Positions 11,112-62,758 of a stretch of 64,000 bases of DNA are shown here, piece after piece. Each line of letters opens with the position of its first letter. The stretch's first letter is position 1. The notes below the pieces were generated by a model. It was not told the DNA's origin and made no database searches. It saw nothing but the letters and a program-made list of their open reading frames with translations. The stretch comes from Clostridia bacterium. GTDB taxonomy: Bacteria; Bacillota; Clostridia; Oscillospirales; Acutalibacteraceae. The translations under genes were made by a program, and so were the position numbers. The stretch is from contig JAFXFF010000044.1 of assembly GCA_017520705.1 (NCBI GenBank), positions 60,108 to 124,107 on the forward strand, in the 5' to 3' direction.

Positions 11112-11716
11112 TGTGCCTCCCCCTTTCTCATACACGCCTTTTTGATGGCGAGGACAATCTTTTGAGTCAGTCGTGCGGCACCCTTGGACGCCGCCTTACA
11201 GCCATAGAAAGCGAAGATGGCGAGGCCGCCGCAGACAAGAGCAGCGGCAAGGACAGCCAGCCCCGAGGGAACGTAGCCGCCGATGGCGAAGCCGATGCCA
11301 CCCACCGGACCGATAACAGCGCAGGCCGCCAGCGACACAAACACCGCCCAGAGAGACACGATCACCGACCACAGCACCGCATACAGCGACAGCACCACCG
11401 CAAAGGCGGCGATCAGCCGCGACAGCCAGATGGGAGACCCGAGAATCAGCAGGACAATCGTCAGTGCGGACATAGGCCTGCGCGAGCGAATACGCACCTT
11501 GATCAATTCCGGGAAGGGGTATTCGTCTACCACCTGCAGGACAATATCGTTCACCGATCCCACGGAGGCCACCGCCTCCTCCTCGGTGAGGCCCTCCTCC
11601 ATACGGTCATCGATCTGCTCGCTGTAAAACTCGATACGCCCGTCAATTTCCTCCTGCGGTAAGCCGGACAGCCCCTGCCGCAGATCGGAAAGAAATTCCT
11701 GTTTACGCATGCTCAT
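11108..11716 (-). CDS. DUF1700 (HAAS) membrane protein
   Basis: MRKQEFLSDLRQGLSGLPQEEIDGRIEFYSEQIDD… N-terminal domain followed by multi-TM Gly-rich region. The canonical PadR-DUF1700-DUF4097 triad. Confidence 0.7.
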   Translation of the reverse strand: MSMRKQEFLSDLRQGLSGLPQEEIDGRIEFYSEQIDDRMEEGLTEEEAVASVGSVNDIVLQVVDEYPFPELIKVRIRSRRPMSALTIVLLILGSPIWLSRLIAAFAVVLSLYAVLWSVIVSLWAVFVSLAACAVIGPVGGIGFAIGGYVPSGLAVLAAALVCGGLAIFAFYGCKAASKGAARLTQKIVLAIKKACMRKGEAQ

Positions 11717-12023
11717 CACCCTCCCTACTGACAAACTGATAAATAGACATCATCTCTGCCCACTCACTCTTAAACTCCTCGATACGGCGGCATCCCGCAG
11801 CGGTAATGCGGTAATATTTCCGCAGGCGGCCGTCGTGCGCCGCGGTGCGGACGGTGAGCATCTCTGCCCCCTCCAACCGCTTGAGAATGGTGTATAACGT
11901 GGACTCGGACAGTTCCATATACGGCTTCATATCCTTGATGATCTTATAGCCGTAGGAGTCTTCGCTCTTGATGGCGGCCAGCACACATACGTCCAAAAGG
12001 CCGCGCTTGAGTTGAACATCCAT
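11703..12023 (-). CDS. PadR family transcriptional regulator
   Basis: LLDVCVLAAI…SYGYKIIKDM…STLYTILKRLE winged-HTH PadR signature. Confidence 0.85.
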   Translation of the reverse strand: MDVQLKRGLLDVCVLAAIKSEDSYGYKIIKDMKPYMELSESTLYTILKRLEGAEMLTVRTAAHDGRLRKYYRITAAGCRRIEEFKSEWAEMMSIYQFVSREGDEHA

Positions 12024-12249
12024 CCAATACCTCCTCTCGTGTAATACATCGTATCACGAGGTATTAGATTTGTCAAGGGGAAAAGGGGGGAAATTGTGAA
12101 AATTTCGTAATTTTGTTTCACAAAATGGAGACGATTTTTTTGAAACAGAAAAAACCGTTAAAAAAATAACCACTTTCGGTCAAAAAAGCGAAAAAAGGTT
12201 GACAACGGCACTAAAAAAGTTTATGTTCTATAATGTATAGTTATATAAT

Positions 12250-12600
12250 TTGGGATATTATACCCAATTCTATGGGAGGTTGGGCGTCTTGACCGAAAAG
12301 GAACTGCGAAAACTGAACCGATACCAGCTTTTGGAGCTGCTGATGATGCAAACGGAGCAAAACCAGCAGCTCAGGCAGGAGATCGAGCATCTGCGAGAAC
12401 AGCAAATGCGGCTGGAGGAGATGGGCTCGGTGGCAGAGGCATCCCTGCTGCTGAACGGTGTATTTGAGGCGGCGCAAAAGGCTGCCGACGACTATTTGAG
12501 CGAGGCGCGCAACCGTGCACAACGGATCGTAGAGCGTGCCCGTCTGGAGGCGGAGTTATTCAATGAAACGGCAACTGTGGAAACCAAGGACGAAACCTAA
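12250..12600 (+). CDS. Small coiled-coil protein (hypothetical); true start probably TTG ~12280-12290
   Basis: Heptad-rich sequence (LRQEIEHLREQQMRLEE). RBS GGGAGG at ~12272. 3' end overlaps the signal peptidase gene. Confidence 0.35.
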   Translation: MGYYTQFYGRLGVLTEKELRKLNRYQLLELLMMQTEQNQQLRQEIEHLREQQMRLEEMGSVAEASLLLNGVFEAAQKAADDYLSEARNRAQRIVERARLEAELFNETATVETKDET

Positions 12601-13183
12601 GCACACCACCACGGTATCGGACACCCCGGAGCCGGAGGCGTTGCAGCAGGAACTCAAACGGGAACGAAACAAACGCCGATTCCGTAAGCTTTTGCGCAGT
12701 ACGGTCAGCGCTCTCATCGTGGCGGCAGCGGTGGCGGCCATCATCGCCACCATGATCCTGCCGGTATTGCAAATTGCCGGTACCAGTATGGAGCCGACCC
12801 TCTACGACGGGGACATCGTTCTGCTGGTCAAAACCGACAAACTGAAGACCGGTGACCTATGCGCCTTCTATTACTCCAACAAGATACTGATCAAACGGGT
12901 CATCGCGACCCCCGGCGACTACATCTGGATCGAGTCTGACGGCACCGTATTTCTCAACGGAGAAAAATTGGACGAGCCGTATCTCACCGTCAAAGCGCTG
13001 GGCGAATGCGACGTAGAATTCCCTTATCAAGTGCCTGAAAACCACTTCTTTATGATGGGGGATCAACGGGAAACCTCGGTGGACAGCCGCAGCAGCGTCA
13101 TCGGCTGTATCCCCGAAGATCAGGTGATCGGTAAGATACTGTGTAAATTCTGGCCCCTATCCCAATTTAACTGGATGGCATAA
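12563..13183 (+). CDS. lepB: Signal peptidase I (catalytic Ser/Lys retained), immediately upstream of the pilus genes
   Basis: TM helix; GTSMEPTL (Ser box); KRVIATPGD (Lys box); GDQRETSVDSR box E. Confidence 0.8.
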   Translation: MKRQLWKPRTKPKHTTTVSDTPEPEALQQELKRERNKRRFRKLLRSTVSALIVAAAVAAIIATMILPVLQIAGTSMEPTLYDGDIVLLVKTDKLKTGDLCAFYYSNKILIKRVIATPGDYIWIESDGTVFLNGEKLDEPYLTVKALGECDVEFPYQVPENHFFMMGDQRETSVDSRSSVIGCIPEDQVIGKILCKFWPLSQFNWMA

Positions 13184-13213
13184 AGTGTTTTAATATCCCA
13201 ACCGCGAGAGGAG

Positions 13214-16200
13214 GTGGAAGGCTTGCCGGAACAGTTAACGCAATACATATCCCAACTGAATAAGAGCAATTCCCGCCGTGCAGGCCTCCGCCAGGCGCTG
13301 TTCGCCCTCTCTCTGGTGGCGATACTCATCGTGTTCTGGTGTCTCAAACTGACCGGTATTACGATGGCCGGCGAAGCCTTCTGCGGCAAAGAAGAACACG
13401 TCCACACAGCCGAGTGTACGCAAACGGGATGTGCATTGGAAGAACATATCCACGACCCCACCTGCTACAGCAACGTCCAAATTGACGTAGAGACCGCCGA
13501 TGACTGGGAGCAGACGCTGGCCGGCATCACCCGCGGCGAGACCACGGCAGAGAACGTGGTGGCGGTAGCCACATCCCAACTGGGGTATCGGGAAAGTACG
13601 CAAAACTTCCAAGTGGACGCGAACGGTGTCCGACGGGGCATCACCCGCTACGGACAATGGTACGGCAACCCCTACGGCGACTGGTCGGCCATGTTTGCCT
13701 CCTTCTGCCTGCACTATGCCGGGGTGACCGACCTGCCTGCCAATGCAGGCGCCGAATCCATGCGACTGGAATGGGCAGAGGACGGCCTGTATCGGGCCGC
13801 GGCCCATTACGCACCGCAGGTAGGCGACCTGCTATTCCTCACCGAAAACGGCAGCACCGCCAACGCGGTGGCAATCATCACCGCTGTGAGTGACAGCGGC
13901 ATCACGGTGATACAAGGTGACGTGGAAGATGCCGTCAGCGAGGTAACCTATCCCCTCGACAGCACGCCTATTCTGGGGTACGGCACCGTGCCTGAACAAT
14001 CGGAGCTGACGGTGCTGGCCACCACACCTGACGGTGCCACCGTGGTGGCGCGTACCACCGCCTATTCAGCCGGTATGCTGACGCAGGGAAACAGCTTCGT
14101 CATCTACACCGTCAGCGGCGGCAACTATTACGCCATCGACGGCAGCGGCAACGCGGTGCCTGTGTACATAGAAAACGGCAACATTTTTGCGGATGTGGCA
14201 GATCCCAACACGCTGCTGTGGAATTTCACCGCCAACGGCTCCTCCTACGTTATCCGAAACGTAGGCACGGGGCGTCATCTCCACCCCTTCTACAACAGCA
14301 ATACCGATAACGGCGTCACCACCTCCGGCGGATGGACCACCTCGGTGGTCACCTCCGGCAACGGCGTCAAATTCCGCGCCTCTGCCTATGCCCGCCTAAA
14401 TGCGAGCGGCGGCAATTTCGTGATGACCCGTAACGAACAGGAGGGCACCGTATTCCAGTTTGGTGTGGTCAACAACCGCACCGTCTGGCTGGACGGTACC
14501 TGCGGAGGGATTATGAGCTTGGGCGGCTCCCCCAACACACCCTATACGGTGCTGCAGGGTGACGTCGTGAAACTTCCCACCGAATGGAAATCTCCTGACA
14601 AATACGCATACAAGCTGCGCGGCTGGTACGACGTGACCAACAACCGCTACTATCTGCCCGGTGCAGAGGTGACGGTCACCGACCATATGGTATTCTACGC
14701 CGATTGGACAGCAGAAACCTACGACGTGGGCCAATTCAATTCCCACGTAGCGGAAACCACCAGCACCAACCAGTTTGTCACTGTCCGTATGTTTGACTAC
14801 GGGCCTCTGTTCAACCTCTTATCCACACGAGCCAACGTCACGGTAAACAGCAGCGGACACACCGAGACCTGGAACCTCTTGACCTCCGGAAACAATCCCT
14901 ACAACGGAGATCCTACGCTGAACTTCATCTTCCGTGACTGGGACCGCGGCAACGAGGATATCTCCTATCCCAACGGCACCAATGCGGCTAACAACCCCAC
15001 CGACGCCGGCAGCGTGTATCCGGGACTGTATACGGATAACTTGGGCAGCCTGCTCTTCGACCCCGAATTGCAGGTCCTCGGCAAACAGTATTTGGGTGAG
15101 GGCGATCATCTATTCCAGCTCTGTGTGGATCCCAACGATCCCAATTACGGCTATTACTACTACGATTCCCAGCGCAACGCGGCATCGTATAACCAAAGCG
15201 ACGGACGCTTCTATGTCTACGACTATCTGGAGTGCACCCGCGACTCGCTGAACAACGGTTATGCAGACTTTTTGCCACTGAACTCTCCCTACGCCAATAC
15301 CAATGGCAAGCTCATCCCCACCTACCAATACGGAGGTGTCAACGGTGAATACGACGGTGTGACCCACTATTCGTACGACAGTAAGTACAACACCAACGGC
15401 AACAACACCGACCACGTGGGCGCCAACTACTGGTATGGTATGAGCGTAGACATTCAGTTCTATCTCCCCCACGTCCCCGGTACGATACTGGAAAACGGTC
15501 GATACGGCAACCAGGACCTCTACGGCGGCGATATGCACTTCCATTTCGCCGGCGACGACGACGTATGGGTGCTGGTGGACGGCAAAATGGTGCTGGACCT
15601 GGGCGGTATCCACGGTGTCGAGAACGGCGATATCAACTTCTCCACCGGCGTGGTCACCGTCAACGGCAGGGTGAATACGGCATTGTCCAACACCCTCAAG
15701 AGCATCTAGCCCGGCGAGCACACACTGACCCTCTACTATCTGGAACGCGGTAGTTCCAAATCCAACTGCGCTTTCCGTTTCAATTTGGCGCCCCGATTCA
15801 GCCTCGCCCTTCAAAAAGAGGACGTGCTGACCCGCCACCTGCTCAACGGTGCCCAGTTCTCGGTCTTCACCGACAAAGCCTGCACCCAACCGGCCACCCT
15901 GTGGACCAGCCAGCAGGCCTACTACGCCAACGAGGATCCCAACCACGTATTTACCGTTGTAAACGGTAAAGCCGATATGTGGGGACTCATCGCTGGCGAG
16001 ACCTATTACATCGTGGAGACCAAGCCGCCCGACGCCACCGGCTACATCGGAGCGGACGGCATTATCTGCCTGACCATCGACAAAAACGGTATCGCCTCCT
16101 ACTCGGTGGAGGTGAGGGAGAACGCTGACGGCGAACTTTCGCCCGGTTTCACGGTCCACGGTGTGAAAATTGATGAGGAAACCCAGCAAGCCTTCCTCAT

Positions 16201-17509
16201 CGCCACTAACGCGCCCGAGACCATCACCGAAGCCACCAGCGTGACAGTGAACAAGATCTGGGACGACGACAAGGATCACTCCGCCGATTACATCACGGTG
16301 TATTTGACGGTGACCGACCCCGACGGGACGGTGCGCCGCATCCGTGAAGTGATCCTCAGCGCGGAGAACAACTGGCAGTATACGTGGGAAAACCTTCCCA
16401 AGACCGACGCCGACGGCAACATCGTCCAATACGGCGTCAGCGAATCCACCGTTCCCGGCTACGTGAGTCGGGTTGAGATCACAGAAGGACCGCCGGGAGG
16501 TGACAGCTCCGACGGTGAAGGTAGTGGTCCCGGAGATGTGACAGCGGTGGGGAGCTTCCAAAACGGCCAAACCTATCTGCTGAGCACCAGATTCGGCTGG
16601 CTGACCGCCAACAACAATCAGTTGGGACTGGTCACCAATCAGCAGACTGCCGCCGGCTCCGACAGCGCCCTGTGGGTGGCAACGGTTAACGGTGACGGCA
16701 CCGTCACCCTGACCAACAAACGAGGACAAACCCTCTATTACGACAACTACACCTTCAAGGCAGGCTCCTCACCGGGAACCTACAAAAACCTCCGCTTTGC
16801 GGACAACCGTCTATACTGCTATATCAATCACGGCGGGTGGAGCGAGACGCAATATCCCATTGACGACGACAACGTCCCCAGTAACCTGACCTACAACCAC
16901 GTGTTGTATACCACCAACAACAGTGCACAAGCCCTGGTGATCACACCGCAGGCTCTGGGCGGCAGTCCGCCGGAACCCGAGCCTGAGCCGCCTCCCGACA
17001 GCGGCGGAGGTGACAAACACTTCCAGATCACCAACACGCCGGCAGGCCAGGCCGTCACCTCCCTTACCGTCCATAAGATATGGGATGTAGGCGACCTGGG
17101 AGATGCCTCGCTGTACGAGAAGCTGGTGGTACAAATCCGTCTGCTGGCTAACGGCGTGGACGCCGGCCTTACAGGTCAGCTCAGCCTCAAGAACGGATGG
17201 GTCTACACCTTCCAGGATCTGCCACTATACGACAGTGGCGGTCAAATGGTGGTGTACACCGTGGAGGAACAATTCATCTCGGAGGATTGGATCGTGCACT
17301 ACGGCAACGTCATCTCCTCCGGCGGAAGCAGCCCCACCTACACGGTCAACGTGACCAACACGTACCGAACAGGGGGGCCCATGTTGCCGGCCACCGGCAC
17401 GGCGGCACGTCTGTACTTTGTACTGTGCGGAGCGAGCATCATGCTCGGAACGCTGGTATACGGATTTGCATTGAGGCGTAAGCGTAAGCGAGAAAGGAGG
17501 TTAGAGTAG
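13214..17509 (+). CDS. Giant LPXTG pilus tip adhesin (CHAP/NlpC-like, fibro-slime/PA14-like, beta-trefoil-like, 2x CnaB), interrupted by an in-frame TAG at 15707-15709. Possible pseudogene, phase-off allele or readthrough.
   Basis: Track ORFs 13214..15709 and 15785..17509 are in the same frame; the translation reads …NTLKSI*PGEHTLTLYYLERGSSKSNCAFRFNLAPRF… uninterrupted except for TAG. C-terminus is LPATG + TM + RRKRKRERR. Probable start TTG 13223 after GAGGAGG. Confidence 0.75.
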
Positions 17510-17601
17510 CCTTCTGATCGCGGCAAAACTTGCGCCGTGAATGCAGATCTTAAGTAAACTGTAAACCAAAAAATTTTTAAATTCAGAAAGGAAGAAAACT
17601 C

Positions 17602-19104
17602 ATGAAAAAGATCGTTACTCTGTTACTGGTCCTGGCACTCACCCTGAGCCTGTCCTGCGCGGTTTCTGCCGCTGAGGTCGGTTCCATTACCATCAACAAC
17701 ATTGCCGCCGACACCACCTACGAGATCTACCAGCTGTTGGATCTGGAGAGCTATGACAGCGTCTCCGGTGCCTACTCCTACAAGGTAAACAGTGCCTGGA
17801 CCGCCTACTTCGACACCGCCGAGGCGCAGGCCTACATCACTGTGGATGCCGCCGGCTATGTGACCTGGGTGGCCGGTGAGGACGATGCCACCGTGGCCGC
17901 CTTCGCACAGAAGGCTTTGGCCTATGCCGAGGCCCACAGCATTGCCCCCGTTAAGTCCTCTCAGAATCCCGGCGATTTCGCCATCACCGGTACCACCGGC
18001 GTGTTCTCCGATCTGCCTCTGGGCTACTATCTGGTAGACTCCACCGCCGGCGCCCTGTGCGGCCTGACCACCACCGACCCCGACGCCGCCATCAACGCTA
18101 AGAACGGCGTGCCCACCATCGACAAGCAGGCGCAGGAAGATCTGAGCGGCATGTGGGGCGACCACAACACCGCCGACATCGGCCAGATCGTCAACTTCAT
18201 GACCATCATCCACGCTGCCCCCGGTGCCCAGAACTACGTGATGCACGATACCATGTCTGCCGGTCTGACCTTTGTGCAGGATACCGCCAACGACCGCGGC
18301 GTCACTCAGGTCGTACATATCAACAGCCTGGGTGTGGAAACTGTTCTGACCCCCGGCATCGACTACACCGTCAACGATGCCCCCTCCGATAGCTGTACCT
18401 TTGAAGTGGCTCTGACCGAAAGCTTCATCGGCACCCTGAAGGCCAACGACCGCATCATCACCTACTACAACGCCATGCTGAACCGTCACGCCATCGCCGC
18501 CGGCGATGGTAACCCCAACGAGAGCTGGCTGGAGTACGGCGAAGAGAAGTACACCACCCACGATCAGACCAAGACCTACACTTTCTCCATTGACATTGTT
18601 AAGACCGATTCCTCCAACAAGCTGATCGACGGCGCTAAGTTCAAGATCTACGACGCCGCCACCGACGGCAACGAGATCAAGGTCGTGCCCCTGAAGGAGG
18701 CCGACGACGTGACTCCCGTGCTGGATGCCAACGGCAACCCCGTCTATCGCCGTGCCCGTGCCGACGAGGAAGGTGTGGAGATCGAGGTCGTCGACGGTAA
18801 GGTGACCGTGGTGGGCTTTGACAATGGTGTCTACTATCTGGAGGAGACCGCTGCCCCCGCCGGTTACAACAAGCTGACCGCCCGTAAGGAGTTCACCATC
18901 GCCGACGCCAACCTGGATTCCGTCTTCAGCGGCGGCATCTACTCCACCGGTTCCGGCGTGCACGTGGTCAACAAGACCGGTACCATGCTGCCTGAGACCG
19001 GCGGCGTGGGCACTGTCATCTTCGTAGTGCTGGGTACCCTGGCCGTGCTGGGTGCCGGCGTGCTGCTGGTGACCAAGAAGAGAATGGCTATGATCCAGGA
19101 GTAA
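17602..19104 (+). CDS. Major pilin (SpaA-like) with E-box and LPETG sorting signal
   Basis: Signal peptide; E-box YYLEETAAPAGYNKL; LPETGG + TM + KKR tail. Confidence 0.85.
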   Translation: MKKIVTLLLVLALTLSLSCAVSAAEVGSITINNIAADTTYEIYQLLDLESYDSVSGAYSYKVNSAWTAYFDTAEAQAYITVDAAGYVTWVAGEDDATVAAFAQKALAYAEAHSIAPVKSSQNPGDFAITGTTGVFSDLPLGYYLVDSTAGALCGLTTTDPDAAINAKNGVPTIDKQAQEDLSGMWGDHNTADIGQIVNFMTIIHAAPGAQNYVMHDTMSAGLTFVQDTANDRGVTQVVHINSLGVETVLTPGIDYTVNDAPSDSCTFEVALTESFIGTLKANDRIITYYNAMLNRHAIAAGDGNPNESWLEYGEEKYTTHDQTKTYTFSIDIVKTDSSNKLIDGAKFKIYDAATDGNEIKVVPLKEADDVTPVLDANGNPVYRRARADEEGVEIEVVDGKVTVVGFDNGVYYLEETAAPAGYNKLTARKEFTIADANLDSVFSGGIYSTGSGVHVVNKTGTMLPETGGVGTVIFVVLGTLAVLGAGVLLVTKKRMAMIQE

Positions 19105-19215
19105 TCTTAGTCTCTTGTCCATTTTCTCGCTGACTAATTAATCGATATCCCCGGCGGAGGTATCCGCCTCCGCCGGGGATAGAGTTAAGTATTCCACAAC
19201 ATCAGGGGGAAGCCT

Positions 19216-20052
19216 ATGCTGAGCAAAAAAGCGACAATCCTATTGCTGGTCTTCTTTTTCATAGGTTTGTCCGTGCTGTTGTATCCCAGCATCAGCAGCT
19301 ACTGGAACTCCAAGACCCAGAGTGAGGCCATTGTAGACTACGAGGAGATGCTGGCCAACTACAAGCCGGAGGACCGCACCGCCCTCTTTGAAGCCGCCGA
19401 CGCCTACAATCAAAAGCTGGCGGCACTATTCCAGCCCCTGCAGGAGTATGGGGCACTATCCGAGGAATACTGGAAAACGCTGGACGTCACCGGAACGGGC
19501 ATGATGGGGTACATCACCATACCCAAAATCAGTCAAGAGCTGCCCGTCTACCACGGCACCTCAGATGCGGTGCTGGGTAAATCGGTGGGCCATCTGCAGG
19601 GCTCCAGCCTGCCGGTGGGCGGTGTCAGCACCCACAGCGTGGTATCCGCCCATCGCGGACTGCCCTCGGCGGTGCTGTTTACCCACCTGGATCGCATGGA
19701 GGTGGGCGACACCTTTTCCTTCACCATCCTGGACCGCACCTTTACCTATGAGGTGGATCAGATCCGCATCGTGGAGCCGGACGACACCAATCTGCTCCGC
19801 TTAGAGACGGGCAAGGACTACTGCACCCTGCTGACCTGCACCCCCTACGGTATCAACACCCAGCGTCTGCTGGTACGAGGTCACCAGATCGACGCCAGCC
19901 AAAAGAGCAATCTCTACATCGCCAATGAAGCCTATCGGGTGGACACCCTCATCGTCACACCCTTGGTGGCGCTGCCCATCATTTTGGCCCTGCTCATCTA
20001 CGTGATGCTGGCCCCCGTCAAGAAAGAACAGTTAGGAGAGGATACGCTATGA
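19216..20052 (+). CDS. srtC: Class C (pilus-polymerising) sortase
   Basis: N-terminal TM; HRGLP (His); TLLTCTPYG (Cys); LLVRGH (Arg); C-terminal TM lid/anchor. Confidence 0.9.
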   Translation: MLSKKATILLLVFFFIGLSVLLYPSISSYWNSKTQSEAIVDYEEMLANYKPEDRTALFEAADAYNQKLAALFQPLQEYGALSEEYWKTLDVTGTGMMGYITIPKISQELPVYHGTSDAVLGKSVGHLQGSSLPVGGVSTHSVVSAHRGLPSAVLFTHLDRMEVGDTFSFTILDRTFTYEVDQIRIVEPDDTNLLRLETGKDYCTLLTCTPYGINTQRLLVRGHQIDASQKSNLYIANEAYRVDTLIVTPLVALPIILALLIYVMLAPVKKEQLGEDTL

Positions 20053-20954
20053 CAAAACGAATACTTGCGTGTGTGCTGGCGGTATTCTGCCTGCTGATGC
20101 CTCTGTCGGTGCAGGCGGAGGAATTGAACACCGAGCAGCTGTGCAATCTGACGCTGGAATATTCCCACGAGGGGGTGGCCTTTGCCGATGTGGAAGTGGC
20201 TATCTATCGGGTGGCAGAAGCGCATACGGACGGCTCCTACGACCTCATCGCGCCCTATGACGCATACTCCGTCAACATCCACGGCATCACCTCCCAAAAG
20301 GAATGGCAGGACGTGGCGGCTACCTTAACCGCCTATATTACCGCCAACGGGGTCGAACCCACCGCGAGCGGAGTCACCGACAAGGCGGGCGAGGTGGTTT
20401 TGAGCGACTTGCCCGTAGGATTGTACCTCGTACAAGGTGCCCGTGCCGAAAATGAAAAGGGCACCTACGTATTCCGCGAGTTTATGATCTACCTGCCCAC
20501 GCCTGCAGAGGACGGCACCTACCAATACGATCTGCGTGCGAAGCCCAAATGCCACCAGTACACCCCCACCGAAAACTATCGGGTGGTGAAACTGTGGAAG
20601 GACACGGGTAGCGCCCTGCGCCCCGATGAGGTGGTGGTGGACATCTACAAGAACGGTGCGCTCCACGAGACGGTGTCGCTGAATGGAAACAACGGCTGGA
20701 GCTATGAATGGACCGACAAGGAACAAGCGCGGTGGCAGGTGACAGAGCGGGACGTGCCGGAGGGCTATCAGGTATCCGTCACCAACCACGAGACGGTATT
20801 TACCATCACCAACGCAAACCCCGACGCTCCTCCCCCGCCACCCGCTACGGGGGACAGCTTCCCTTGGCTGATGTGGGTTGTGATCGTATGTCTGGTGGGC
20901 TTTGCGCTGGTGCTGGTGGCTCTGTGGGGACGACGATATGAAAAGACGAAATAA
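20049..20954 (+). CDS. Minor/basal pilin with CnaB-type domain and non-canonical PPATG sorting signal
   Basis: Signal peptide; YRVVKLWKD… CnaB fold; PPPPATGDSFPW + TM + GRRYEKTK. Confidence 0.7.
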   Translation: MTKRILACVLAVFCLLMPLSVQAEELNTEQLCNLTLEYSHEGVAFADVEVAIYRVAEAHTDGSYDLIAPYDAYSVNIHGITSQKEWQDVAATLTAYITANGVEPTASGVTDKAGEVVLSDLPVGLYLVQGARAENEKGTYVFREFMIYLPTPAEDGTYQYDLRAKPKCHQYTPTENYRVVKLWKDTGSALRPDEVVVDIYKNGALHETVSLNGNNGWSYEWTDKEQARWQVTERDVPEGYQVSVTNHETVFTITNANPDAPPPPPATGDSFPWLMWVVIVCLVGFALVLVALWGRRYEKTK

Positions 20955-21501
20955 GTGGATACTGTGGGCGGGTGTAGCCCTCATTGCCGTCAGCCTGTGT
21001 GCGGCGGCGGTGTTCGGCCTGCTCCAGCGACGCGGCGAGCGACAGGCGGCGGACATCGCACGGCAAATCGAGGCGGCACTGCCGCCCCGCACCGTGGGCG
21101 CGGAAGAGGCCTACAGCGTGATGCAGATGCCTGCCCTGAGCATTGAGGGCGAGGACTTTGTGGGGCTGGTGGAGATCCCCGCCTACGGGGTCACGCTGCC
21201 CCTCTGTGACGAGTGGCAGCCTACCCAGCTGAACCGCTATCCCTGCCGCTTTTGGGGTACGGCGTATGACGGCAGTCTCATCATCGGCGGCGGTGCCAAA
21301 CAGTTTGCCTGCCTCGGGCAGATACAAAACGGCGACGAGGTGCGGGTGACGGATATGCAAGGGGCGGTGTTCACCTACACCGTGACCCGTATCCGCCGTA
21401 CCGACCACGCGGATGCAAAGACACTTAAAAATGAAGCGTCACTCACGCTGTTTGCGCGGGACGGAGCCAATATGGAGTATATTATAGTAGAATGTATGTA
21501 A
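20938..21501 (+). CDS. Sortase-fold protein lacking the His-Cys-Arg catalytic triad (degenerate sortase paralog)
   Basis: N-terminal TM. Aligns block-by-block with the srtC product (LVEIPAYGVTLPL ~ ITIPKISQELPVY; FTYTVTRIRR ~ FTYEVDQIRI), but HRG becomes GGGAKQ, TLLTC becomes TLFARD, and the protein ends before the Arg. Confidence 0.55.
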   Translation: MKRRNKWILWAGVALIAVSLCAAAVFGLLQRRGERQAADIARQIEAALPPRTVGAEEAYSVMQMPALSIEGEDFVGLVEIPAYGVTLPLCDEWQPTQLNRYPCRFWGTAYDGSLIIGGGAKQFACLGQIQNGDEVRVTDMQGAVFTYTVTRIRRTDHADAKTLKNEASLTLFARDGANMEYIIVECM

Positions 21502-21502
21502 A

Positions 21503-21542
21503 AAAATAACCGCAACCTCTGTGAGGTTGCGGTTATTTTTCG
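21503..21542 (+). terminator. Intrinsic terminator ending the pilus operon
   Basis: aaaaaaataaccgcaacctc-tgtg-aggttgcggttatttttcg. Confidence 0.75.
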
Positions 21543-21754
21543 TGTAGGAATCATCGCGCATCTTCCTCACGCCACGCAAAAAGGGTCGGCCGGGATAGAC
21601 GCCGAGAGATGCTGGACGGTCAAAACCCTTAGTTTGCGCTATGCGCAAACTAAGGGGGCAAGTCCATACCTCCCGAGCCAAGTAAAAAGACCCGCCATAA
21701 TGTGGCGGGTCTTTTTACTTGGGAATAACGAACAGGTTTAATAGAATGCCAAAA

Positions 21755-21892
21755 GACGGGGTGCATCTCACTTTTAGGTGGGGTGCCTTTTTGCTTTTCC
21801 CGGGGTGCAAATGAGGTGCAACCCGAAAACCGGGTGAGGTGCATCCTCCTCCGGGTGGGGTGCAAACCACACCCCGGGGTGCAACTTAGAAC
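21755..21892. repeat. Cluster of ~7 GGGGTGCA(A) heptamer/octamer repeats
   Basis: ggggtgcatc / ggggtgcc / ggggtgcaaatgaggtgcaa / gggtgaggtgcatc / ggggtgcaaac / ggggtgcaac within 140 bp. Confidence 0.6.
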
Positions 21893-22362
21893 GAAGCCTC
21901 ATAATAATAGAAATTTCCACAGATGTGCTCTGTATAATACCGATTATCCCCATTGGGTTCTTGACACTCAAATCCATTTCCGGAAGGAGTCAACGCACTG
22001 GCAGACGACGGTGCGCACCACACAGCAGCCATATCGTTTTCCGAGGTATAATAGAAACCTACATAAGAGGTACCCGAACCTACACCAGCACCACCACAGG
22101 AAAAGTCAACAACCGTTTCGTCTGCATCGATTTCTTTGATAAAGCCTTTATTCTCATATGCAGAAAAGTCTCCAGCTTCAATTGCCTTCAGCAGTTCTTC
22201 CTCATTCTCACTCACGAAATCAAAAACCTCGTCTTTATCGGCGCTATCATCCCCTGTTGCGACAAGGAAAAGGAAAAAAGCACCACCCAAGATATCCGAG
22301 CACCCAGACAGAGAAAACACCATAATTACAGCCAAAAGCAGGGCTAATCCTTTTTTTAGCAT
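21886..22362 (-). CDS. Lipoprotein of unknown function
   Basis: MLKKGLALLLAVIMVFSLSGCS lipobox; Cys/Tyr-rich C-terminus. Confidence 0.55.
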   Translation of the reverse strand: MLKKGLALLLAVIMVFSLSGCSDILGGAFFLFLVATGDDSADKDEVFDFVSENEEELLKAIEAGDFSAYENKGFIKEIDADETVVDFSCGGAGVGSGTSYVGFYYTSENDMAAVWCAPSSASALTPSGNGFECQEPNGDNRYYTEHICGNFYYYEASF

Positions 22363-22366
22363 ATTC

Positions 22367-22948
22367 TCACTCCCGTCCCAGCAGCAGCGCATATTGGTTA
22401 GACAAAACTTTTGACAAAACGCAGAACACCGCAGACATTACCACACCACACCACACCAGCGGTGATGACATCGCAATCCCACCTGCATAGTGGATCGTCG
22501 CCCAAACATATCCCAAAAGCGTGATTCCTAAGGTTGCAAGGCAGGAACAGACAGAAAAAATCTTTCGATTTTTATACACCCGGAGGAAAAACCAGTTTGC
22601 CAGAGACAAGAGGTATCCGGTTGCAGGAACAATCAGCGCCACTGCCCACAATCCGTTGGTATTTCCTGTAGGGGTACTACCTTCTAAAATTACACCCAGC
22701 GTAATAATGGCAAAGGAAACGAATAGCATTACCGATTGTAGGACAGACGCTTTCCAATCACTCACACGACGCAGCTTCACAGTATTCGGTTTTTCTTCAA
22801 AACTTTGGCATGTCTCACGCATCTGATCATATATTTTGCGGCAACTCTCACATGCGTCAAGATGCTCGGCTACAAGTCTTGCACTTTCTTCCGAACAACA
22901 TTCATCCACGTATAGGGGCAGCAGATCCATTATTACATTGCAGTCCAT
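22367..22948 (-). CDS. Anti-sigma factor, zf-HC2 type, with TM domain
   Basis: MDCNVIMDLLPLYVDECCSEESARLVAEHLDACESCRKIY (HxxxCxxC zinc motif) followed by 4 predicted TM helices. Confidence 0.75.
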   Translation of the reverse strand: MDCNVIMDLLPLYVDECCSEESARLVAEHLDACESCRKIYDQMRETCQSFEEKPNTVKLRRVSDWKASVLQSVMLFVSFAIITLGVILEGSTPTGNTNGLWAVALIVPATGYLLSLANWFFLRVYKNRKIFSVCSCLATLGITLLGYVWATIHYAGGIAMSSPLVWCGVVMSAVFCVLSKVLSNQYALLLGRE

Positions 22949-22949
22949 A

Positions 22950-23414
22950 TTATCGACCCAATCCTTCCATAATTTTTTGTTTGGCACGGTAGTAAGTAAC
23001 ACGAGCCCAGCTTTCACTTTTTCCAAACATCGCACTGATATCTTTCAACGATAGGCCGCCAAAAACAGAAAGCATAAAAACTTCTTTGTATGGCTCTTCC
23101 AAGGCGTGCAGGAGGGAAAAGGCTCTGCCGGCAAGTTCCTTTTCCTCGAAAAGCTCGGCAATGTCAGGTGTGCTATCCGCAGATATTGGCTGTGAAATTG
23201 GCTGATTTCTTTTCTGTTCGTTGAACCAAGCAAAGTATGTATTTTTTGCAATTTGGCACAGCCATAATGCTACTTTTTCTTCGTTTCTCAGAGCTGATAA
23301 GTTCATATACGCACGAAAAAAGGTTTCCTGCGTTAGTTCCTCTGCCAAAGATACATCACCGCATAGTTTCATCAAAAAACGAAAAACGAATTGATCGTTC
23401 TCTCGGAACACCAT
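22950..23414 (-). CDS. ECF (sigma-70 family) RNA polymerase sigma factor
   Basis: Region 2 (FRFLMKLCGDVSLAEELTQETFFRAY) and region 4 (GGLSLKDISAMFGKSESWARVTYYRAKQKI). Stop abuts the anti-sigma start. Confidence 0.8.
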   Translation of the reverse strand: MVFRENDQFVFRFLMKLCGDVSLAEELTQETFFRAYMNLSALRNEEKVALWLCQIAKNTYFAWFNEQKRNQPISQPISADSTPDIAELFEEKELAGRAFSLLHALEEPYKEVFMLSVFGGLSLKDISAMFGKSESWARVTYYRAKQKIMEGLGR

Positions 23415-23550
23415 TTCAAAGTCCAGCACACCCTCACCACCTTTCACTTATTAGATTGGGAAATAGTAAAAACGTTACAATTATTATACAGACACCAGCG
23501 TGATTTTTCAAATATGTTGCGAAATAAGTTCTATACTGTTGATCCGTCGA

Positions 23551-23690
23551 ACTAACCCATTAGCTACACACAAGTCTCTTTCGTTACACGCAGACCCTAT
23601 TCGCTACACGGAGAGCACTATTGGTTACACGGAGACCCCTATTAGTTACACGGCGACTTCAATTCGTTACACGGCTAAATAGGGGTAATT
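23551..23690. repeat. Six tandem ~21-bp iteron-like direct repeats (core GTTACACGGnGA…CTATT)
   Basis: tagcTACACacaagtctcttt / cgtTACACgcagaccctatt / cgcTACACggagagcactatt / ggtTACACggagacccctatt / agtTACACggcgacttcaatt / cgtTACACggctaaatagggg. Confidence 0.8.
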
Positions 23691-23821
23691 TCAAAGAAAT
23701 ACACATTCCAAAACAGCCGATTTCTATAAATGTTCTTTTTTATATAAAATATGTGTATTTTCGCTGTTGTTTTGAATATAAAAAGTTCCCGTCTAACTCT
23801 ATCAAAGTTAGACGGGAAATG

Positions 23822-23906
23822 TGGTGCGAGGGAGGGGACTTGAACCCCCACGCCATTTGACACACGCACCTCAAACGTGCCTGTCTGCCGATTCCAGCAC
23901 CCTCGC
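23822..23906 (-). tRNA. tRNA-Leu (anticodon GAG), type II with long variable arm, CCA encoded
   Basis: Reverse complement GCGAGGG-TG-CTGGAATCGGCAGA-…CACGT-TTGAGGT-GCGTG-…-GGGGGTTCAAGTCCCCT-CCCTCGC-A-CCA. 7-bp acceptor stem, T-loop TTCAAGT, anticodon loop TT-GAG-GT, discriminator A73 (Leu-type). Confidence 0.75.
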
Positions 23907-24057
23907 ATATAACAGCGCTTATTATACCACCTCCTTTTCCCCGTGTCAATGCTTTTCCAGCCTTTTCCGATTAAAAATCGAACGAAAGTCTTGACAATTT
24001 TTCGACAATCCAGCATAATAGTAATGATATTATTGAATGAATGCGAGGTGTTTCCTA

Positions 24058-24695
24058 TGGCAAAGGATTCTACCATCTCCCTGCAAGTGATTCGACGTCT
24101 GCCCCGCTACTACCGCTTCCTATACGATCTGAAGGAAAACGGCATCACCCGTATCTCCTCCCGCGAGTTGGCTCAGCGTATGCGGCTGACCGCCTCTCAG
24201 ATCCGTCAGGATCTCAACTGCTTCGGCGGATTCGGTCAGCAGGGCTACGGCTATTTGGTGGACCAGCTGTACGACGAGATCGGACACATCCTGGGTATGG
24301 ATCAGCTAACCAAAACCATCCTGCTGGGTGTGGGCAATTTAGGTACGGCTGTGGGCAACCACATTGACTTCAAATCCCGCGGATTTAATTTGATCGGTCT
24401 TTTTGACGACAACCCCGAGCTGGTGGGTGACACCCGTGCAGATATGGTCATCCGCTCCACCGACGAGATAGAGGAGTTTTGCCGCAGAGAGAAACCCGAG
24501 ATGGCGGTGCTGTGCATCCCAAAGGAGGCGGCTCCCCGTCTGGTGGAGGTGCTGGTGGGTTGTGGTGTCAAGGGTTTTTGGAATTTCTCCCACTACGACA
24601 TCCTACACGACTATCCCGACGTCATTGTGGAGAACGTACATATGGGTGACAGCCTGATGACCCTCTCCTATCATATGGTGCAAGAAGAAAATTAA
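24058..24695 (+). CDS. rex: Redox-sensing transcriptional repressor Rex
   Basis: VIRRLPRYYRFL…NGITRISSRELAQRM… winged helix + Rossmann GVGNLGTAV NADH-binding motif. Confidence 0.9.
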
Positions 24696-58465: not shown

Positions 58466-61400
58466 TTATCCTTCTGCGGCGGCGGTGATGACGCGCTGTA
58501 CCAAATCAGACTCCTCTTGTGTCAGCCAAATCAGTTTGCCGTCATCCCGCAGAAGCGCAGTGTGATCCGAAGTGACGTAATACGTGTGTTTCCCCAGATT
58601 GATCGCTCCCTCAAACAGAAAAGCGCGATTGACAGAGGTGGCATCTACCCACCGGTTCTCTTTATCCCACTGCTCCCACAACAGCCACAGTTCCTCCATA
58701 TCCTCATCATCTCGAAGGAATTTGCGCCATCTCTCAACCGCTTTGTCGGGATACTCGGTAAGCTGATTAAAGACGGCGGCATAGTAATTCTCGGGAATGG
58801 TTGCCCTCACGTACGATTCCATATGAGTGACAAACACCAAATCCACCTTTGCGATGCCCGAAAATAACCACCAGTTGGCGATACCGGTATCCCCTACAGC
58901 GGGGGTATATACATCCAAGCCCACACGAAGCTTTGAGTCTTCGTAAGTGTAAGAAACCACGTACGGGGTGTCGGAACCGCTAACGGTCGTGTAACAGGTT
59001 AGAAGAACCGCATTATCTGCGAAGAATGCATCGTTAAAGCAGTCGAAATCGCTGATCTTCCACCGCTCTGCCGTTCCCGCTTTTTGATAGTACGTGAGGA
59101 ACTCCACCAATGCGGCGCGATTATTGAACCGCTTGATCGACGCAGTTCCAAAAATCATCTCCCGCTCTTCTTCGCTGATGCCCGTCTCCACCGTATGGGT
59201 GATCCCCACGTCCACAGTGTGGGTGTACAAGATGAAAGAACTGCCGTCTGCTCCTACCAAAAGCATCCGATTGGCACCGGTGGTCGTATTCTTCTGATAT
59301 ACGCAGGCCATATTGCCCAAGAGGTTGATCTCCGGTCGCAAAGAGGTATAATCATACGTCGTTCCCATCACGTAGGGAATGGGAACACCGATGGCCTTAC
59401 CCTTATAATCCGTAAACATTAAGGAGGCGCCGCTGCCGTGATTATCCGTGACCAATCGCACCGTGTAATCGTTCAACCGCTCTCCGGGCGAGCCCGAAGA
59501 GAGGATTTCCTCACCGGTTTGGATATTGTAGAATCGGTGTTGTTTATAGACGTATGCGCTGAAATAATCGTTGTGAAGAGAGTTATCCTCCGCCGAGGAA
59601 TACCATTCCAACTCCCAACCCAAATCCACTTCTTCCATCTTAGGGGAATCCGTACGATAATCGACGGTATACGTTCCGGTGAACGTTTGGTAAGTGAGAT
59701 CGTTGGAACTGGAGGGGATATCGGAGCCGGTATAGCCATAGCTTTCCATCTTCAGATAGCATTTCCCTCGGTTAAAACCATATATCGTGATATAGGCTCC
59801 GCCACCGACGGTGCCCATAGTCAATTGCTGACGCTGACTGCCATCCGTTCGGTATATAAACAACTTTTCTCTATTTACAGACATATGCTTTTTCACGCTG
59901 AAGATCCATGCGCCCGCAATATCGAAAGATAACACGTCGTCGTCGCCGTCTATCAAACGGACATCACTGCCATCGTCACGGCAGGAATACAGATTGTGTC
60001 CCTTCAAGTAAAAAATTCTGCCATCCTTTACCCGCAAATTGGAACAGCCCAAAAAGTCCGTAATCTTTTTTAGGGCATTGGGAGCAGACGGGTCCTTAAC
60101 GGTCAAATCTCGACGATACAAGACCTTTTCGTTGGGCTGTACAAAATAGTAATAATTCCCGTCCACACAGGTGGCAATATCCGTTGAGGGCGCCGTTAAC
60201 GAAGGAGTAGACGGCTTCGTGGTGGGGGTGGTGGGCTTGGTGGTGCCGGTGGTGGGATCGGAGGGCTCGTCGTCGGGGCCGCCCATCAGATCCGCATCCG
60301 CCCACTTTCGATCGATGGCGTAAATGGCGGTGCCGTCATACCAACCGTCGTAATAGATCGTGGCGGAATAGCCCACAGCCGGAGCACTGCCCGGAAGCAA
60401 AATGCCGGTGTACACCTTCACCCGCGGACCCAATTTCGAGTCGCTATCGGTGACTTCCAGCACGAGATAGCCGCCTTCTTTGCTCCACTCCACCACCGTG
60501 CCGGTGACCGAGGCGGCGATGGCGTCCTCGCCGGGGTTGCCCTCGCACAGATAGTAATCCAACTGTTCGCTCTCTTCGGCGGTCAGATCGGCGATCTGCT
60601 CGCCATTGTAGAGCTGCTTTTTGTCGGGACTGAGGTAATAGTTCTTTGCGCCGTCGAAGGAGAAATTGGCGATGGCGGCAAAACCGGTATCCACCCCACC
60701 TTCTGCGCTATACCATTCCAGACCCTCCACCAAAGGCAGTAGGGTTTCACGGCTATCCTCGGAGAGGCTGTAATAACCGATGAATGCAACGTCCTCGTCA
60801 CCACCTACGGTGATGGGGTGGCTGTAAGTTGCCCAGTAATTTTCCGTGGGGATGCGATAACGAATCACCGCACGATAGGCGGTGGCGCCCTTGATCTCGG
60901 CGAGAGGCACCTCCGCCAGCATAAACCAATGACCGGTGGCAAAATCCACGTGGGAGGGTTCGTAAACGTCCACCTGAACGGTGACCAACTCGGTGCCGTT
61001 GTACATCACGGCGGCAATCTTAGGCTTCAACGAACCGCTGCTGTCCCGATGATATACGGCAAGCAACATCCTATCTGTAAAGAAAGCGTCGTCGTAACCG
61101 CTCACCAGTTCGGCCTTGCTCTCGATAATGTAATCGTCAAGAAATGCATCCAGCTCAGCTCGGGAAGTAATGGGGATAATGGGGCGGTCTTTATCGCTGT
61201 AATTACCGGTGCGATATTGGTACTGATTATACAACGTATTGCGCTGTTCCTCCGTCATCTGCACCTGCCCTGCGGCAAAGGTAACGGGAGCCGTAAAAGA
61301 CACGGCGTGAATTTTGTCCTTGCGCTCAAACACAGCGCCGTCTTTCAGCGTATAGTCGCCAAAGGACATCTGCTCATAGCTCATCAGAGAGCCACCTTTA

Positions 61401-62758
61401 CCGATACGTAAGGTCAGGCCGGTCAGATCGCCGTCAAACAACAAGGTCATGGCGTCGTCAGGGAAGGTCATGGTGACGGTATCCTCCCCCATCTCATAGG
61501 TGCCCTCCAACAGCATGGCGGAGGACAACGCGCTGTTGGTATAAGTACAACGGTTACCGCCGATCTCCAACGTTACCTGTGCGTAGGGCTGCTGGACATG
61601 GGTAAACACCGCATACTGCGGCTCGGCGTCGGGATCGTCATCCGTATCGGTGACGGCGGGTTTATCCGTATCATCCGACTTAGGGTCGGTGAGCAGGCAG
61701 ACGCCGGCCACGGTGGACACCAGCAGAGCGGCGACGATGATCCAGATGGTGGGTTTCTTATAAGACAGTACCGACTTGACGCGGCTCTTGACTGACGTCT
61801 CGCCAAAGGCGAGAGGACAGGCGGACACCAGGCGGCGGGGGGCACTGCAGGCCAGCAGCGCCTCGGAATACGCCTTGCGGTCGGCGGCGGGCATATCCCG
61901 CACCACCCGCTCGTCGCAGGCGGCCTCGATATCGCGGCAAAGGAAGATATAGGCCACCCACATCAAAGGGTTAAACCAATACACCGTCAGCAGCACAAAG
62001 CCCAGAGGCTTCCACCAATGGTCGCGGCGGTGGAGGTGGGCCTGCTCATGGGCCACCACGCTGGCTCGGGCGGTGGCATTTAAGTCAGAGGGCAGGTAGA
62101 TGCGAGGGCGGAACACACCCAGGATAAAGGGGCTGCGCAGATGATCGCACTGCCACAGATTATCCGACAGATGAGCCGCCTCCCCCACCTGACGGCGCAA
62201 GCGGAGGGTGGTGAACACGGCATAGGCCGCCAGCAGCACGATACCCGCCAGCCACACGTAGGTGGCGACGGTGAGAGCAATCTGCCACGGGTCAACGCTT
62301 GCCTCGGTGGTAGCGGTAGATACCGACGCATCGGGGGTGGGGGTCACCACGGGAGCATCCGCCACGGGAGGCGTCACCACGGGGGTATCCGTCGCGGGAG
62401 GTATCACCACGGGAGGTGTCACCACGGGGGTGTCCGTCACGGGAGGCGTCACCACGGGGGTGTCCGTCACGGGAGGCGTCACCACTGGGGTATCGGGGGC
62501 GCTATTCTCAACGGGCGGCGTATCGGGAGCGGGAGCCGGCGCCGGAACGGACACCGCGGGGGTGTCGGGCATCAGGCTCAGGCTGCTCTCGATGGTGAAG
62601 GGGCACAGCAGACGCACCGCCACCAGCGCCCACAAAAGAACGTGGATCCAACGGGGTGCCTTATGAAACACCAAACGGAGCAGCAACACAGCCACCACCA
62701 GGATACCGGCGGTGAGGCTCATATTCAGCAAATGCAGAAAGACGTTCTCCATAATCAC
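58466..62758 (-). CDS. M56-family (BlaR1/MecR1-like) signal-transducing metalloprotease fused to a ~1000-aa uncharacterised extracellular region
   Basis: BlaR1-type N-terminus; HEQAHLHRRD zinc motif; P/T/V-rich 10-aa repeat insert between TM1 and TM2 (30-bp DNA tandem repeats ~62300-62520); large C-terminal ectodomain without PBP motifs. Start overlaps the blaI stop. Confidence 0.75.
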   Translation of the reverse strand: MIMENVFLHLLNMSLTAGILVVAVLLLRLVFHKAPRWIHVLLWALVAVRLLCPFTIESSLSLMPDTPAVSVPAPAPAPDTPPVENSAPDTPVVTPPVTDTPVVTPPVTDTPVVTPPVVIPPATDTPVVTPPVADAPVVTPTPDASVSTATTEASVDPWQIALTVATYVWLAGIVLLAAYAVFTTLRLRRQVGEAAHLSDNLWQCDHLRSPFILGVFRPRIYLPSDLNATARASVVAHEQAHLHRRDHWWKPLGFVLLTVYWFNPLMWVAYIFLCRDIEAACDERVVRDMPAADRKAYSEALLACSAPRRLVSACPLAFGETSVKSRVKSVLSYKKPTIWIIVAALLVSTVAGVCLLTDPKSDDTDKPAVTDTDDDPDAEPQYAVFTHVQQPYAQVTLEIGGNRCTYTNSALSSAMLLEGTYEMGEDTVTMTFPDDAMTLLFDGDLTGLTLRIGKGGSLMSYEQMSFGDYTLKDGAVFERKDKIHAVSFTAPVTFAAGQVQMTEEQRNTLYNQYQYRTGNYSDKDRPIIPITSRAELDAFLDDYIIESKAELVSGYDDAFFTDRMLLAVYHRDSSGSLKPKIAAVMYNGTELVTVQVDVYEPSHVDFATGHWFMLAEVPLAEIKGATAYRAVIRYRIPTENYWATYSHPITVGGDEDVAFIGYYSLSEDSRETLLPLVEGLEWYSAEGGVDTGFAAIANFSFDGAKNYYLSPDKKQLYNGEQIADLTAEESEQLDYYLCEGNPGEDAIAASVTGTVVEWSKEGGYLVLEVTDSDSKLGPRVKVYTGILLPGSAPAVGYSATIYYDGWYDGTAIYAIDRKWADADLMGGPDDEPSDPTTGTTKPTTPTTKPSTPSLTAPSTDIATCVDGNYYYFVQPNEKVLYRRDLTVKDPSAPNALKKITDFLGCSNLRVKDGRIFYLKGHNLYSCRDDGSDVRLIDGDDDVLSFDIAGAWIFSVKKHMSVNREKLFIYRTDGSQRQQLTMGTVGGGAYITIYGFNRGKCYLKMESYGYTGSDIPSSSNDLTYQTFTGTYTVDYRTDSPKMEEVDLGWELEWYSSAEDNSLHNDYFSAYVYKQHRFYNIQTGEEILSSGSPGERLNDYTVRLVTDNHGSGASLMFTDYKGKAIGVPIPYVMGTTYDYTSLRPEINLLGNMACVYQKNTTTGANRMLLVGADGSSFILYTHTVDVGITHTVETGISEEEREMIFGTASIKRFNNRAALVEFLTYYQKAGTAERWKISDFDCFNDAFFADNAVLLTCYTTVSGSDTPYVVSYTYEDSKLRVGLDVYTPAVGDTGIANWWLFSGIAKVDLVFVTHMESYVRATIPENYYAAVFNQLTEYPDKAVERWRKFLRDDEDMEELWLLWEQWDKENRWVDATSVNRAFLFEGAINLGKHTYYVTSDHTALLRDDGKLIWLTQEESDLVQRVITAAAEG

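Follow-up and report, generated by a model that had tools for sequence, protein, structure and literature searches.

Does a compact run of genes in the genome of a Clostridia bacterium encode a complete sortase-dependent pilus, what would such a pilus carry at its tip, and is that tip still made? We addressed these questions in a stretch of 64,000 nucleotides (nt) from an Acutalibacteraceae genome (assembly GCA_017520705.1, contig JAFXFF010000044.1, positions 60,108 to 124,107 of the forward strand; hereafter, the window), in which the + strand between 12199 and 21540 holds a compact eight-gene operon with a promoter-like site at its 5' end and a terminator at its 3' end. Taken together, our results make it quite probable that this single operon encodes a three-pilin sortase pilus, that it belongs to a cassette of gut Oscillospirales, and that it combines a non-enzymatic, lectin-type tip with a non-catalytic factor encoded by the eighth gene, the tip gene itself being cut here by an in-frame TAG codon. 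The features are as follows, in window coordinates (aa, amino acids; ORF, open reading frame).

12199-12227, + strand: promoter candidate upstream of the first gene, sigma-70-like (TTGACA, 17-nt spacer, TATGTT), matching 10/12 positions in a consensus scan
12289-12600, + strand: small coiled-coil protein, 103 aa, TTG start, an exact match to the NCBI protein MBR3779522.1
12563-13183, + strand: type I signal peptidase (S26), 206 aa (Pfam, TIGR02227), its first 38 nt shared with the 3' end of the preceding gene
13223-17509, + strand: reading frame of the tip adhesin, split here (translation, Pfam, fold search)
13223-15709, + strand: N-terminal fragment of the tip adhesin, 828 aa, MBR3779524.1, ending at the premature TAG (residues counted from TTG 13223)
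15707-15709, + strand: in-frame TAG within the fibro-slime/PA14 domain, Gln to stop through C>T at 15707
15710-17509, + strand: rest of the tip frame, with an annotated ORF from TTG 15785 (574 aa, MBR3779525.1)
17602-19104, + strand: major (backbone) pilin, 500 aa, SpaH/EbpB family (NF033902, TIGR04226, Pfam)
19216-20052, + strand: class C (pilin-polymerising) sortase, 278 aa (NF033745, 263.3 bits against a cutoff of 160)
20049-20954, + strand: basal pilin, 301 aa (Pfam Cna_B, 2e-11), with its sorting signal at 20838
20938-21501, + strand: pseudo-sortase, 187 aa, MBR3779529.1, named 'sortase' by NCBI (Pfam, AlphaFold2, Foldseek)
21502-21540, + strand: intrinsic terminator, a perfect hairpin of 18 base pairs with a U tract continuing from its 3' arm (inverted-repeat search and RNA folding)

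Pilins, sortase and signal peptidase in one operon

The pilus assignment is carried by the backbone pilin, the basal pilin and the sortase encoded between them. The latter has an intact triad, with the His in SAHRG, the Cys in LLTCT and the Arg in QRLLVRG, followed by a C-terminal transmembrane (TM) segment, and its ratio of non-synonymous to synonymous substitution rates (dN/dS) is 0.04-0.06. The product of the preceding gene passes the NF033902 model (107.7 bits, cutoff 95), and it also matches TIGR04226 (43.7 bits) and the Pfam domains GramPos_pilinBB and SpaA. This major pilin has a standard signal peptide, a lysine (Lys167) in a pilin-motif-like INAKNG, an E-box (YYLEETAAPAGY) and an LPETG signal; among 26 homologues K167, K175, K334, E415, N457 and the LPxTG motif are invariant, and Lys167 would be the residue through which subunits are linked. 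In the basal pilin, the SpaA-like and Cna_B domains are followed by a proline-rich tail, which ends in PPATG-D, and then by a TM segment and a basic tail; in related loci the sorting motif takes the form xP[AQK]TG[DE]. A first-pass annotation, made by a model from the letters and their ORFs, had proposed a sortase-dependent pilus island with an E-box LPETG major pilin, a class C sortase and a PPATG basal pilin with a CnaB domain, and searches with hidden Markov models (HMMs) bear these identifications out.

The genes follow one another, all on the + strand and with only overlaps or short gaps at their junctions, in the order coiled-coil protein, signal peptidase I, tip adhesin, major pilin, class C sortase, basal pilin and second sortase-like gene; in the NCBI annotation, their products run from MBR3779522 to MBR3779529 (locus tag IKL13_07410). 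The genes named in the first-pass annotation and their order stand, although its list had omitted the eighth gene (20938-21501), which lies just before the terminator. That terminator, which it had placed at 21503-21542, was missed by a consensus terminator scan and recovered by folding and by the inverted-repeat search; the folded RNA has a free energy of -26 kcal/mol (z -7.76), a stability equalled in none of 200 shuffles. The promoter-like site at the other end is a candidate by its match to the consensus only.

At the 5' end of the operon, the TTG start of the coiled-coil gene is preceded by GGGAGG at 12274-12279, and the start at 12250 chosen earlier is an alternative TTG upstream. The protein gave only weak matches to DivIVA and ATP-synthase-stalk coiled coils, all below cutoff in Pfam and NCBIfam, and its gene heads the cassette in about 18 loci, with identities of 36-50%. 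NCBI names MBR3779522.1 'DNA repair protein', a name for which the domain searches gave no support.

The next gene encodes a signal peptidase with clear matches to Pfam Peptidase_S26 (7.3e-35) and TIGR02227 (130.5 bits, cutoff 47). The catalytic Ser (GTSMEPTL), the catalytic Lys (LIKRVIA) and the GDQRETSVDSR box are all in place, the Ser and Lys aligning with the motifs of SpsB from Staphylococcus aureus, which is also the closest solved structure (4wvg, 4.8e-20); the pilus-associated relatives SipA (4n31, 2e-13) and LepA (4k8w, 6.6e-13) score lower in phmmer. Streptococcal SipA and LepA lack the catalytic Ser and Lys and carry Asp and Gly at those positions (PMC4049620). Since both motifs are retained in all 22 aligned copies of the cassette, the enzyme encoded here is not a pseudoenzyme of the SipA/LepA type, and its dN/dS of 0.03-0.05 indicates strong constraint. 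These residues support the prediction of a catalytically competent signal peptidase inside a pilus locus, as the first-pass annotation had suggested.

The tip adhesin and its in-frame stop

Translation of 13214-17512 gives a single frame with one internal stop (...TLKSI*PGEHTLTLYYLERG), and it is this frame that encodes the tip adhesin. To describe its architecture, we combined an AlphaFold model, which covers the 828-aa fragment only (mean predicted local distance difference test score, pLDDT, 81.5) and on which Foldseek was run, with HMM searches of the whole frame and of an intact homologue of 1428 aa (P0001). The N-terminus is atypical, with a long basic stretch and a 17-residue hydrophobic helix; in the model, residues 2-47 form one long helix, a membrane anchor or signal. 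Right after the helix (window 13355-13465, residues 45-81) stands the motif G-I-T-x-A-G-E-A-F-C-G-x-x-E-H-x-H-x-x-x-C, which is invariant or nearly so among 120 homologues and in a region that no Pfam or NCBIfam model covers. It may be made up of a dedicated site for cleavage and, after it, a cluster that binds metal. The Cys/His cluster reported earlier was recovered at residues 54-81 as two C-x4-H-x-H-x3-C units (three in some homologues), a part of the model of low confidence.

Residues 88-255 adopt the papain-like alpha+beta fold of NlpC/P60 and CHAP domains, as judged from the fold search of the model. The first-pass annotation had recognised this fold and the replacement of its His, and both observations stand, the position being Ala215 here and Ala or Ser across the family; it had not noticed that the catalytic Cys is gone too. 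The Cys position, at the N-terminus of the nucleophile helix, is occupied by Ser155, with Ser in 91/94 homologues. Because both catalytic residues are replaced and neither Pfam CHAP nor NLPC_P60 matches the tip (TIGR02594 alone does, at E=0.01), peptidase activity is unlikely, and, judged by its sequence, the domain can almost certainly be discounted as a cysteine peptidase.

Beyond it, the fold search revealed a beta-trefoil at residues 270-420, upstream of the fibro-slime domain, and an InlB B-repeat or Listeria-Bacteroides-like repeat at residues 421-497 (Foldseek 7pv9; Flg_new in some homologues). A second trefoil, RicinB-like, lies downstream of the fibro-slime domain and between two Cna_B domains, such that the single beta-trefoil-like segment described earlier is present and is one of two; RicinB_lectin_2 scores weakly on P0001 and matches 10/26 homologues. 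The fibro-slime/PA14 domain itself spans residues ~500-855. It scores 44.5 bits with TIGR02148 (cutoff 45, E 1.6e-11), and PA14 scores weakly on P0001 (20.2, cutoff 24) and matches 18/26 homologues at E<=0.01, with a best value of 1.4e-6. The tip also carries the fibro-slime hallmarks F-x-G-D-D-D-V-W and G-x-H-x-L-x-L-Y-Y-x-E-R-G, of which GDDDVW and YYLERG are invariant among homologues, and we regard the fibro-slime/PA14 assignment made earlier as probable.

Past the stop, the frame continues with the last fibro-slime strands, a SpaA-type domain, a Cna_B domain, the RicinB-like trefoil, a second Cna_B domain, an LPATG motif, a TM segment and a basic tail. Pfam matches in this half (Cna_B at 3.9e-29 over two stretches, SpaA at 3.9e-7, and Gram_pos_anchor) and the LPATG at 17384-17398 agree with the two CnaB domains and sorting signal claimed before. 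HMM and fold searches thus concur in supporting the view of the intact tip as an unusual multi-lectin protein on a SpaA/Cna_B stalk. Judging from its folds, it is most likely a multivalent lectin for glycans or the cell wall rather than an enzyme, and adhesion directed to glycans or mucus is a reasonable inference from the lectin-type domains. Pilus tips with fibro-slime, PA14, CHAP or beta-trefoil domains did not appear in the literature searched, most subscription journals lying outside it.

The first-pass annotation had treated the tip adhesin as one intact gene, which it is not in the sequence as deposited. The TAG at 15707-15709 falls about 25 residues ahead of the end of the fibro-slime/PA14 domain and splits the frame into the 828-aa and 574-aa ORFs, which NCBI annotates as a 'hypothetical protein' and a 'Cna B-type domain-containing protein', respectively. 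Since the nonsense codon lies within the fibro-slime domain, the 828-aa product lacks the stalk and the LPATG anchor: as sequenced, there is a head fragment with an incomplete PA14 domain and no sorting signal, and a stalk ORF with no signal peptide. A stalk-anchored, LPATG-bearing tip is accordingly absent from the window and found in P0001 and in 30 of 30 related loci, where the tip is one uninterrupted ORF.

P0001, which occurs on at least four other metagenome contigs, is 100% identical to the read-through of our frame and has Gln (CAG) at the position of the stop; at that position, 10 of 14 aligned tip homologues carry Gln and none a stop. Contigs L001-L004 have C at 15707, and the window differs from L001 at 3/24,287 positions. 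The three differences between window and contigs are all non-synonymous: R106L in a HAAS-domain protein (11418), Q832* in the tip (15707) and M200V in a zf-HC2 anti-sigma factor (22438).

We lean, with some reserve, towards a real allele over an error in the consensus of this metagenome-assembled genome (MAG). The opposite possibility, in which the TAG arose in assembly or consensus calling, or represents a minor variant of the population, and the organism carries the intact 1428-aa tip and makes tipped pili, is a serious contender that we rate somewhat below even. It draws on the intact protein and identical flanking DNA in five other assemblies, on the uninterrupted tip of all 30 related loci, and on so few differences, every one non-synonymous, a pattern expected of random errors. 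Against this, the MAG deposited at NCBI carries the stop and annotates two proteins, the C>T change is a simple transition and not at a homopolymer-type error site, and tip or ancillary pilin genes are known to acquire nonsense mutations in nature, as in Streptococcus suis, in which those of the ancillary pilin lead to pili made of the major subunit only (PMC2797073).

We also considered a 1430-aa ORF at 58466-62758 on the - strand as a second tip paralogue and rejected it, the two being unrelated by BLASTP. Its product is close to the tip adhesin in length and has Pro/Thr-rich repeats near its N-terminus.

A sortase homologue without the catalytic triad

Between the basal pilin and the terminator, the eighth gene encodes an N-terminal TM helix (residues 2-47) followed by a sortase beta-barrel. 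The assignment to the sortase fold is firm: the Pfam Sortase model gives 35.9 bits (cutoff 26.6), the AlphaFold2 model has a pLDDT of 89.4, and Foldseek retrieves SrtC1 (7cg9), SrtA (3rcc) and SrtC of Clostridium perfringens (6ixz) at E ~1e-8 and probability 1.0. No NCBIfam sortase class reaches its cutoff. In comparison with the class C sortase of the operon and with active relatives, Gly119, Arg174 and Tyr181 occupy the positions of the catalytic His, Cys and Arg, and none of these three catalytic residues occurs in any of 176 relatives, for which reason we refer to the protein as a pseudo-sortase. The replacements are consistent, the Cys having become Arg or Lys in 150/176 relatives and the Arg Tyr in most.

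In more distant cassettes, the gene at the eighth position keeps HNY, TLFTC and Arg, from which we conclude that the pseudo-sortase descends from an active small sortase; these active counterparts, too, reach no NCBIfam sortase-class cutoff. Across loci L005-L031, a small sample, the motif of the basal pilin tracks the state of the second sortase, being xP[AQK]TG[DE] where the triad is lost and LPQTG, LIQTG or IDQTG where HNY/TLFTC/R is kept. In this small sample, the loss of catalysis in the eighth gene thus goes together with the change in the basal-pilin motif.

Could the gene be a decaying, functionless remnant of a second sortase that contributes nothing to the pilus? The disappearance of all three catalytic residues and the active version at the same position in distant cassettes would fit such decay, yet we consider it unlikely. 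Every locus of the clade has kept the ORF intact, the family comprises 232 clusters (50% identity) at E<=1e-30 in a profile search, and the dN/dS of 0.14-0.19 is similar to that of the pilins and far from neutral, which indicates purifying selection; the uniformity of the residue replacements and the confident structural model likewise speak against a gene in decay. Most likely, the pseudo-sortase is a non-catalytic factor in assembly or substrate binding. More tentatively, and as one possibility among others, it may be a dedicated pilus-assembly factor that binds a sorting signal and times termination or the hand-over to the wall; the signal bound would then most likely be the xPxTG[D/E] of the basal pilin. 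We found no description of natural inactive sortases or pseudo-sortases in the literature searched, again with most subscription journals outside it.

Assembly, surroundings and relatives of the predicted pilus

Pilus assembly by class C sortases is established in Gram-positive bacteria and provides the basis for the steps that we propose. The pilins would be exported by Sec, and the operon's own type I signal peptidase would remove their signal peptides, perhaps being needed especially for the tip, given its atypical N-terminus. The class C sortase would then cleave the LPETG and LPATG signals and join their threonine to Lys167 in the major pilin that comes next, with the tip adhesin added first and the basal pilin last, and the finished polymer would be fixed to peptidoglycan. 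During this process, the pseudo-sortase may bind a sorting signal without cleaving it. With the TAG as sequenced, the organism could polymerise tip-less pili only.

A number of points weigh against this reading of the operon as a pilus locus with a truncated lectin tip. Pilus formation itself is inferred from homology only, and a housekeeping sortase for wall anchoring was not found within the window. The fibro-slime score of the tip falls marginally below the curated cutoff, and PA14 structures are not among the top fold matches of the incomplete 828-aa model. Lastly, only one MAG consensus shows the stop, which an error of assembly or consensus calling may have introduced; the all-non-synonymous trio of differences fits consensus errors or very recent, unselected mutations equally well.

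If pili were not formed, the LPXTG proteins would be displayed as separate, monomeric adhesins anchored in the wall. Three such proteins with complete sorting signals (counting the tip in its intact form) would suit that arrangement, in which the polymers predicted here from sequence do not exist, but we hold it to be very unlikely: the sortase lies far over the cutoff of a pilin-specific class, the backbone protein, which scores above the cutoff of the SpaH/EbpB major-pilin model, combines the invariant pilin-motif-like Lys with an E-box, and the succession of tip, major pilin, sortase and basal pilin is the canonical pilus layout. Most improbable of all, and rejected, is that the TAG is read through deliberately (by a suppressor tRNA, pyrrolysine or codon reassignment) to give a full-length tip, because TAG, although the rarest stop among the window's long ORFs (3/45), is an ordinary stop in this organism that closes the tip gene itself and a further gene, the window's only tRNA, a Leu-GAG, is no suppressor, no pyl genes were noticed in the window, and the site is a plain Gln codon in near-identical contigs and a stop in 0/14 aligned homologues.

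Returning to the three-pilin operon, we compared its surroundings across loci. The full cassette occurs in the same order in about 25 loci among the matches listed, in MAGs labelled Oscillospiraceae, Acutalibacteraceae, Faecousia, Avispirillum, 'Clostridia' and similar, mostly from animal guts. The genes that flank it in the window are not beside it in the other loci examined; because the flanks differ between loci, the conserved unit is the eight-gene cassette itself. Accordingly, the PadR-HAAS-DUF4097 genes upstream and the pair of genes for an extracytoplasmic function (ECF) sigma factor and its anti-sigma factor downstream were both rejected as island members, each being found beside the cassette in no other species' locus.

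The region 3' of the operon has features of its own. Two more perfect hairpins lie in the intergenic stretch 21540-21886, at 21626-21656 and 21678-21722, and about seven copies of a GGGGTGCA/GAGGTGCA motif occupy 21757-21886, where Rfam gave only sub-threshold noise; over 11500-24500 as a whole, the Rfam scan yielded tRNA-Leu and otherwise sub-threshold noise only. Between 22001 and 24000 the G+C content drops to 0.43, compared with ~0.56 elsewhere, and this stretch contains the ECF sigma/anti-sigma pair (- strand) and the tRNA-Leu(GAG) gene at 23822-23906.

Of the candidates scored, 3244 proteins fall within the tip family at E<=1e-10, which makes it a very large one. The first-pass annotation had called a fibro-slime domain at a pilus tip unusual; this holds for the multi-lectin architecture as such, and does not hold for its occurrence, since both the proteins and the syntenic loci are common in Oscillospirales metagenomes. 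The cassette and its tip architecture are thus common there yet uncharacterised. To our knowledge, sortase pili have been studied almost solely in pathogens, lactobacilli and bifidobacteria, and a cassette that is abundant in uncultured Oscillospirales of animal guts has no characterised member. Its tip could plausibly govern how the cells attach to mucus, to plant fibre or to other microbes. The locus also calls for caution in annotation, since it takes no more than one nonsense codon, or an error in the consensus, for a large adhesin to be disguised as two unrelated-looking proteins.

The closest known systems are the SpaCBA, SpaH and Ebp pili of Lacticaseibacillus rhamnosus GG, Corynebacterium diphtheriae and Enterococcus. 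As in these systems, one operon holds the gene for a class C sortase and those for three pilins, namely a tip pilin, a basal pilin and a major pilin of the SpaH/EbpB family that has the pilin-motif Lys, an E-box and LPXTG. The cassette differs in having, in addition, a coiled-coil protein, an active-type signal peptidase and a triad-less sortase; in its tip, which is ~1430 aa long with lectin-type and dead-peptidase modules, whereas theirs have a vWFA or collagen-binding head; and in its basal pilin, which ends in xPxTG[DE] instead of LPXTG.

The streptococcal FCT, PI-2 and srtF islands with SipA or LepA share with it an S26-family gene inside the pilus operon, beside the pilin genes, and the srtF clusters of S. 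suis show natural nonsense mutations in an ancillary pilin gene, like the tip gene here (PMC2797073). Unlike in those islands, the Ser, the Lys and the GDxRxxSxDSR box of the signal peptidase are intact in 22/22 aligned copies here, and the pseudoenzyme is the second sortase instead of the signal peptidase paralogue SipA. An active-type signal peptidase with an inactive sortase is the reverse of the streptococcal arrangement, and offers a natural system for the study of pilus-assembly pseudoenzymes.

Among clostridia, the VR-10B (CnaA-FimA-FimB) locus of C. perfringens is transcribed as a unit that comprises a sortase, a signal peptidase and three pilins (PMC8088525), a combination also found in our operon. 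There, however, the sortase is of class B, and the tip, CnaA, binds collagen and has no fibro-slime, beta-trefoil or CHAP-like modules; a second sortase-like gene, present here, is not described for that locus. As for the individual tip modules, the hallmark motifs of fibro-slime (TIGR02148)/PA14 domains are shared, the domain standing here at the tip of a sortase pilus and being interrupted by a stop ~25 residues before its end. CHAP and NlpC/P60 hydrolases such as Acd24020 of C. difficile (7cfl), LytE of Bacillus subtilis and the phage lysin Ly7917 have a catalytic Cys and His where the tip family has Ser and Ala or Ser. Relative to known pili, what is new is therefore the pseudo-sortase and the lectin-stacked tip, while the island itself is of an ordinary kind that is common in metagenomes.

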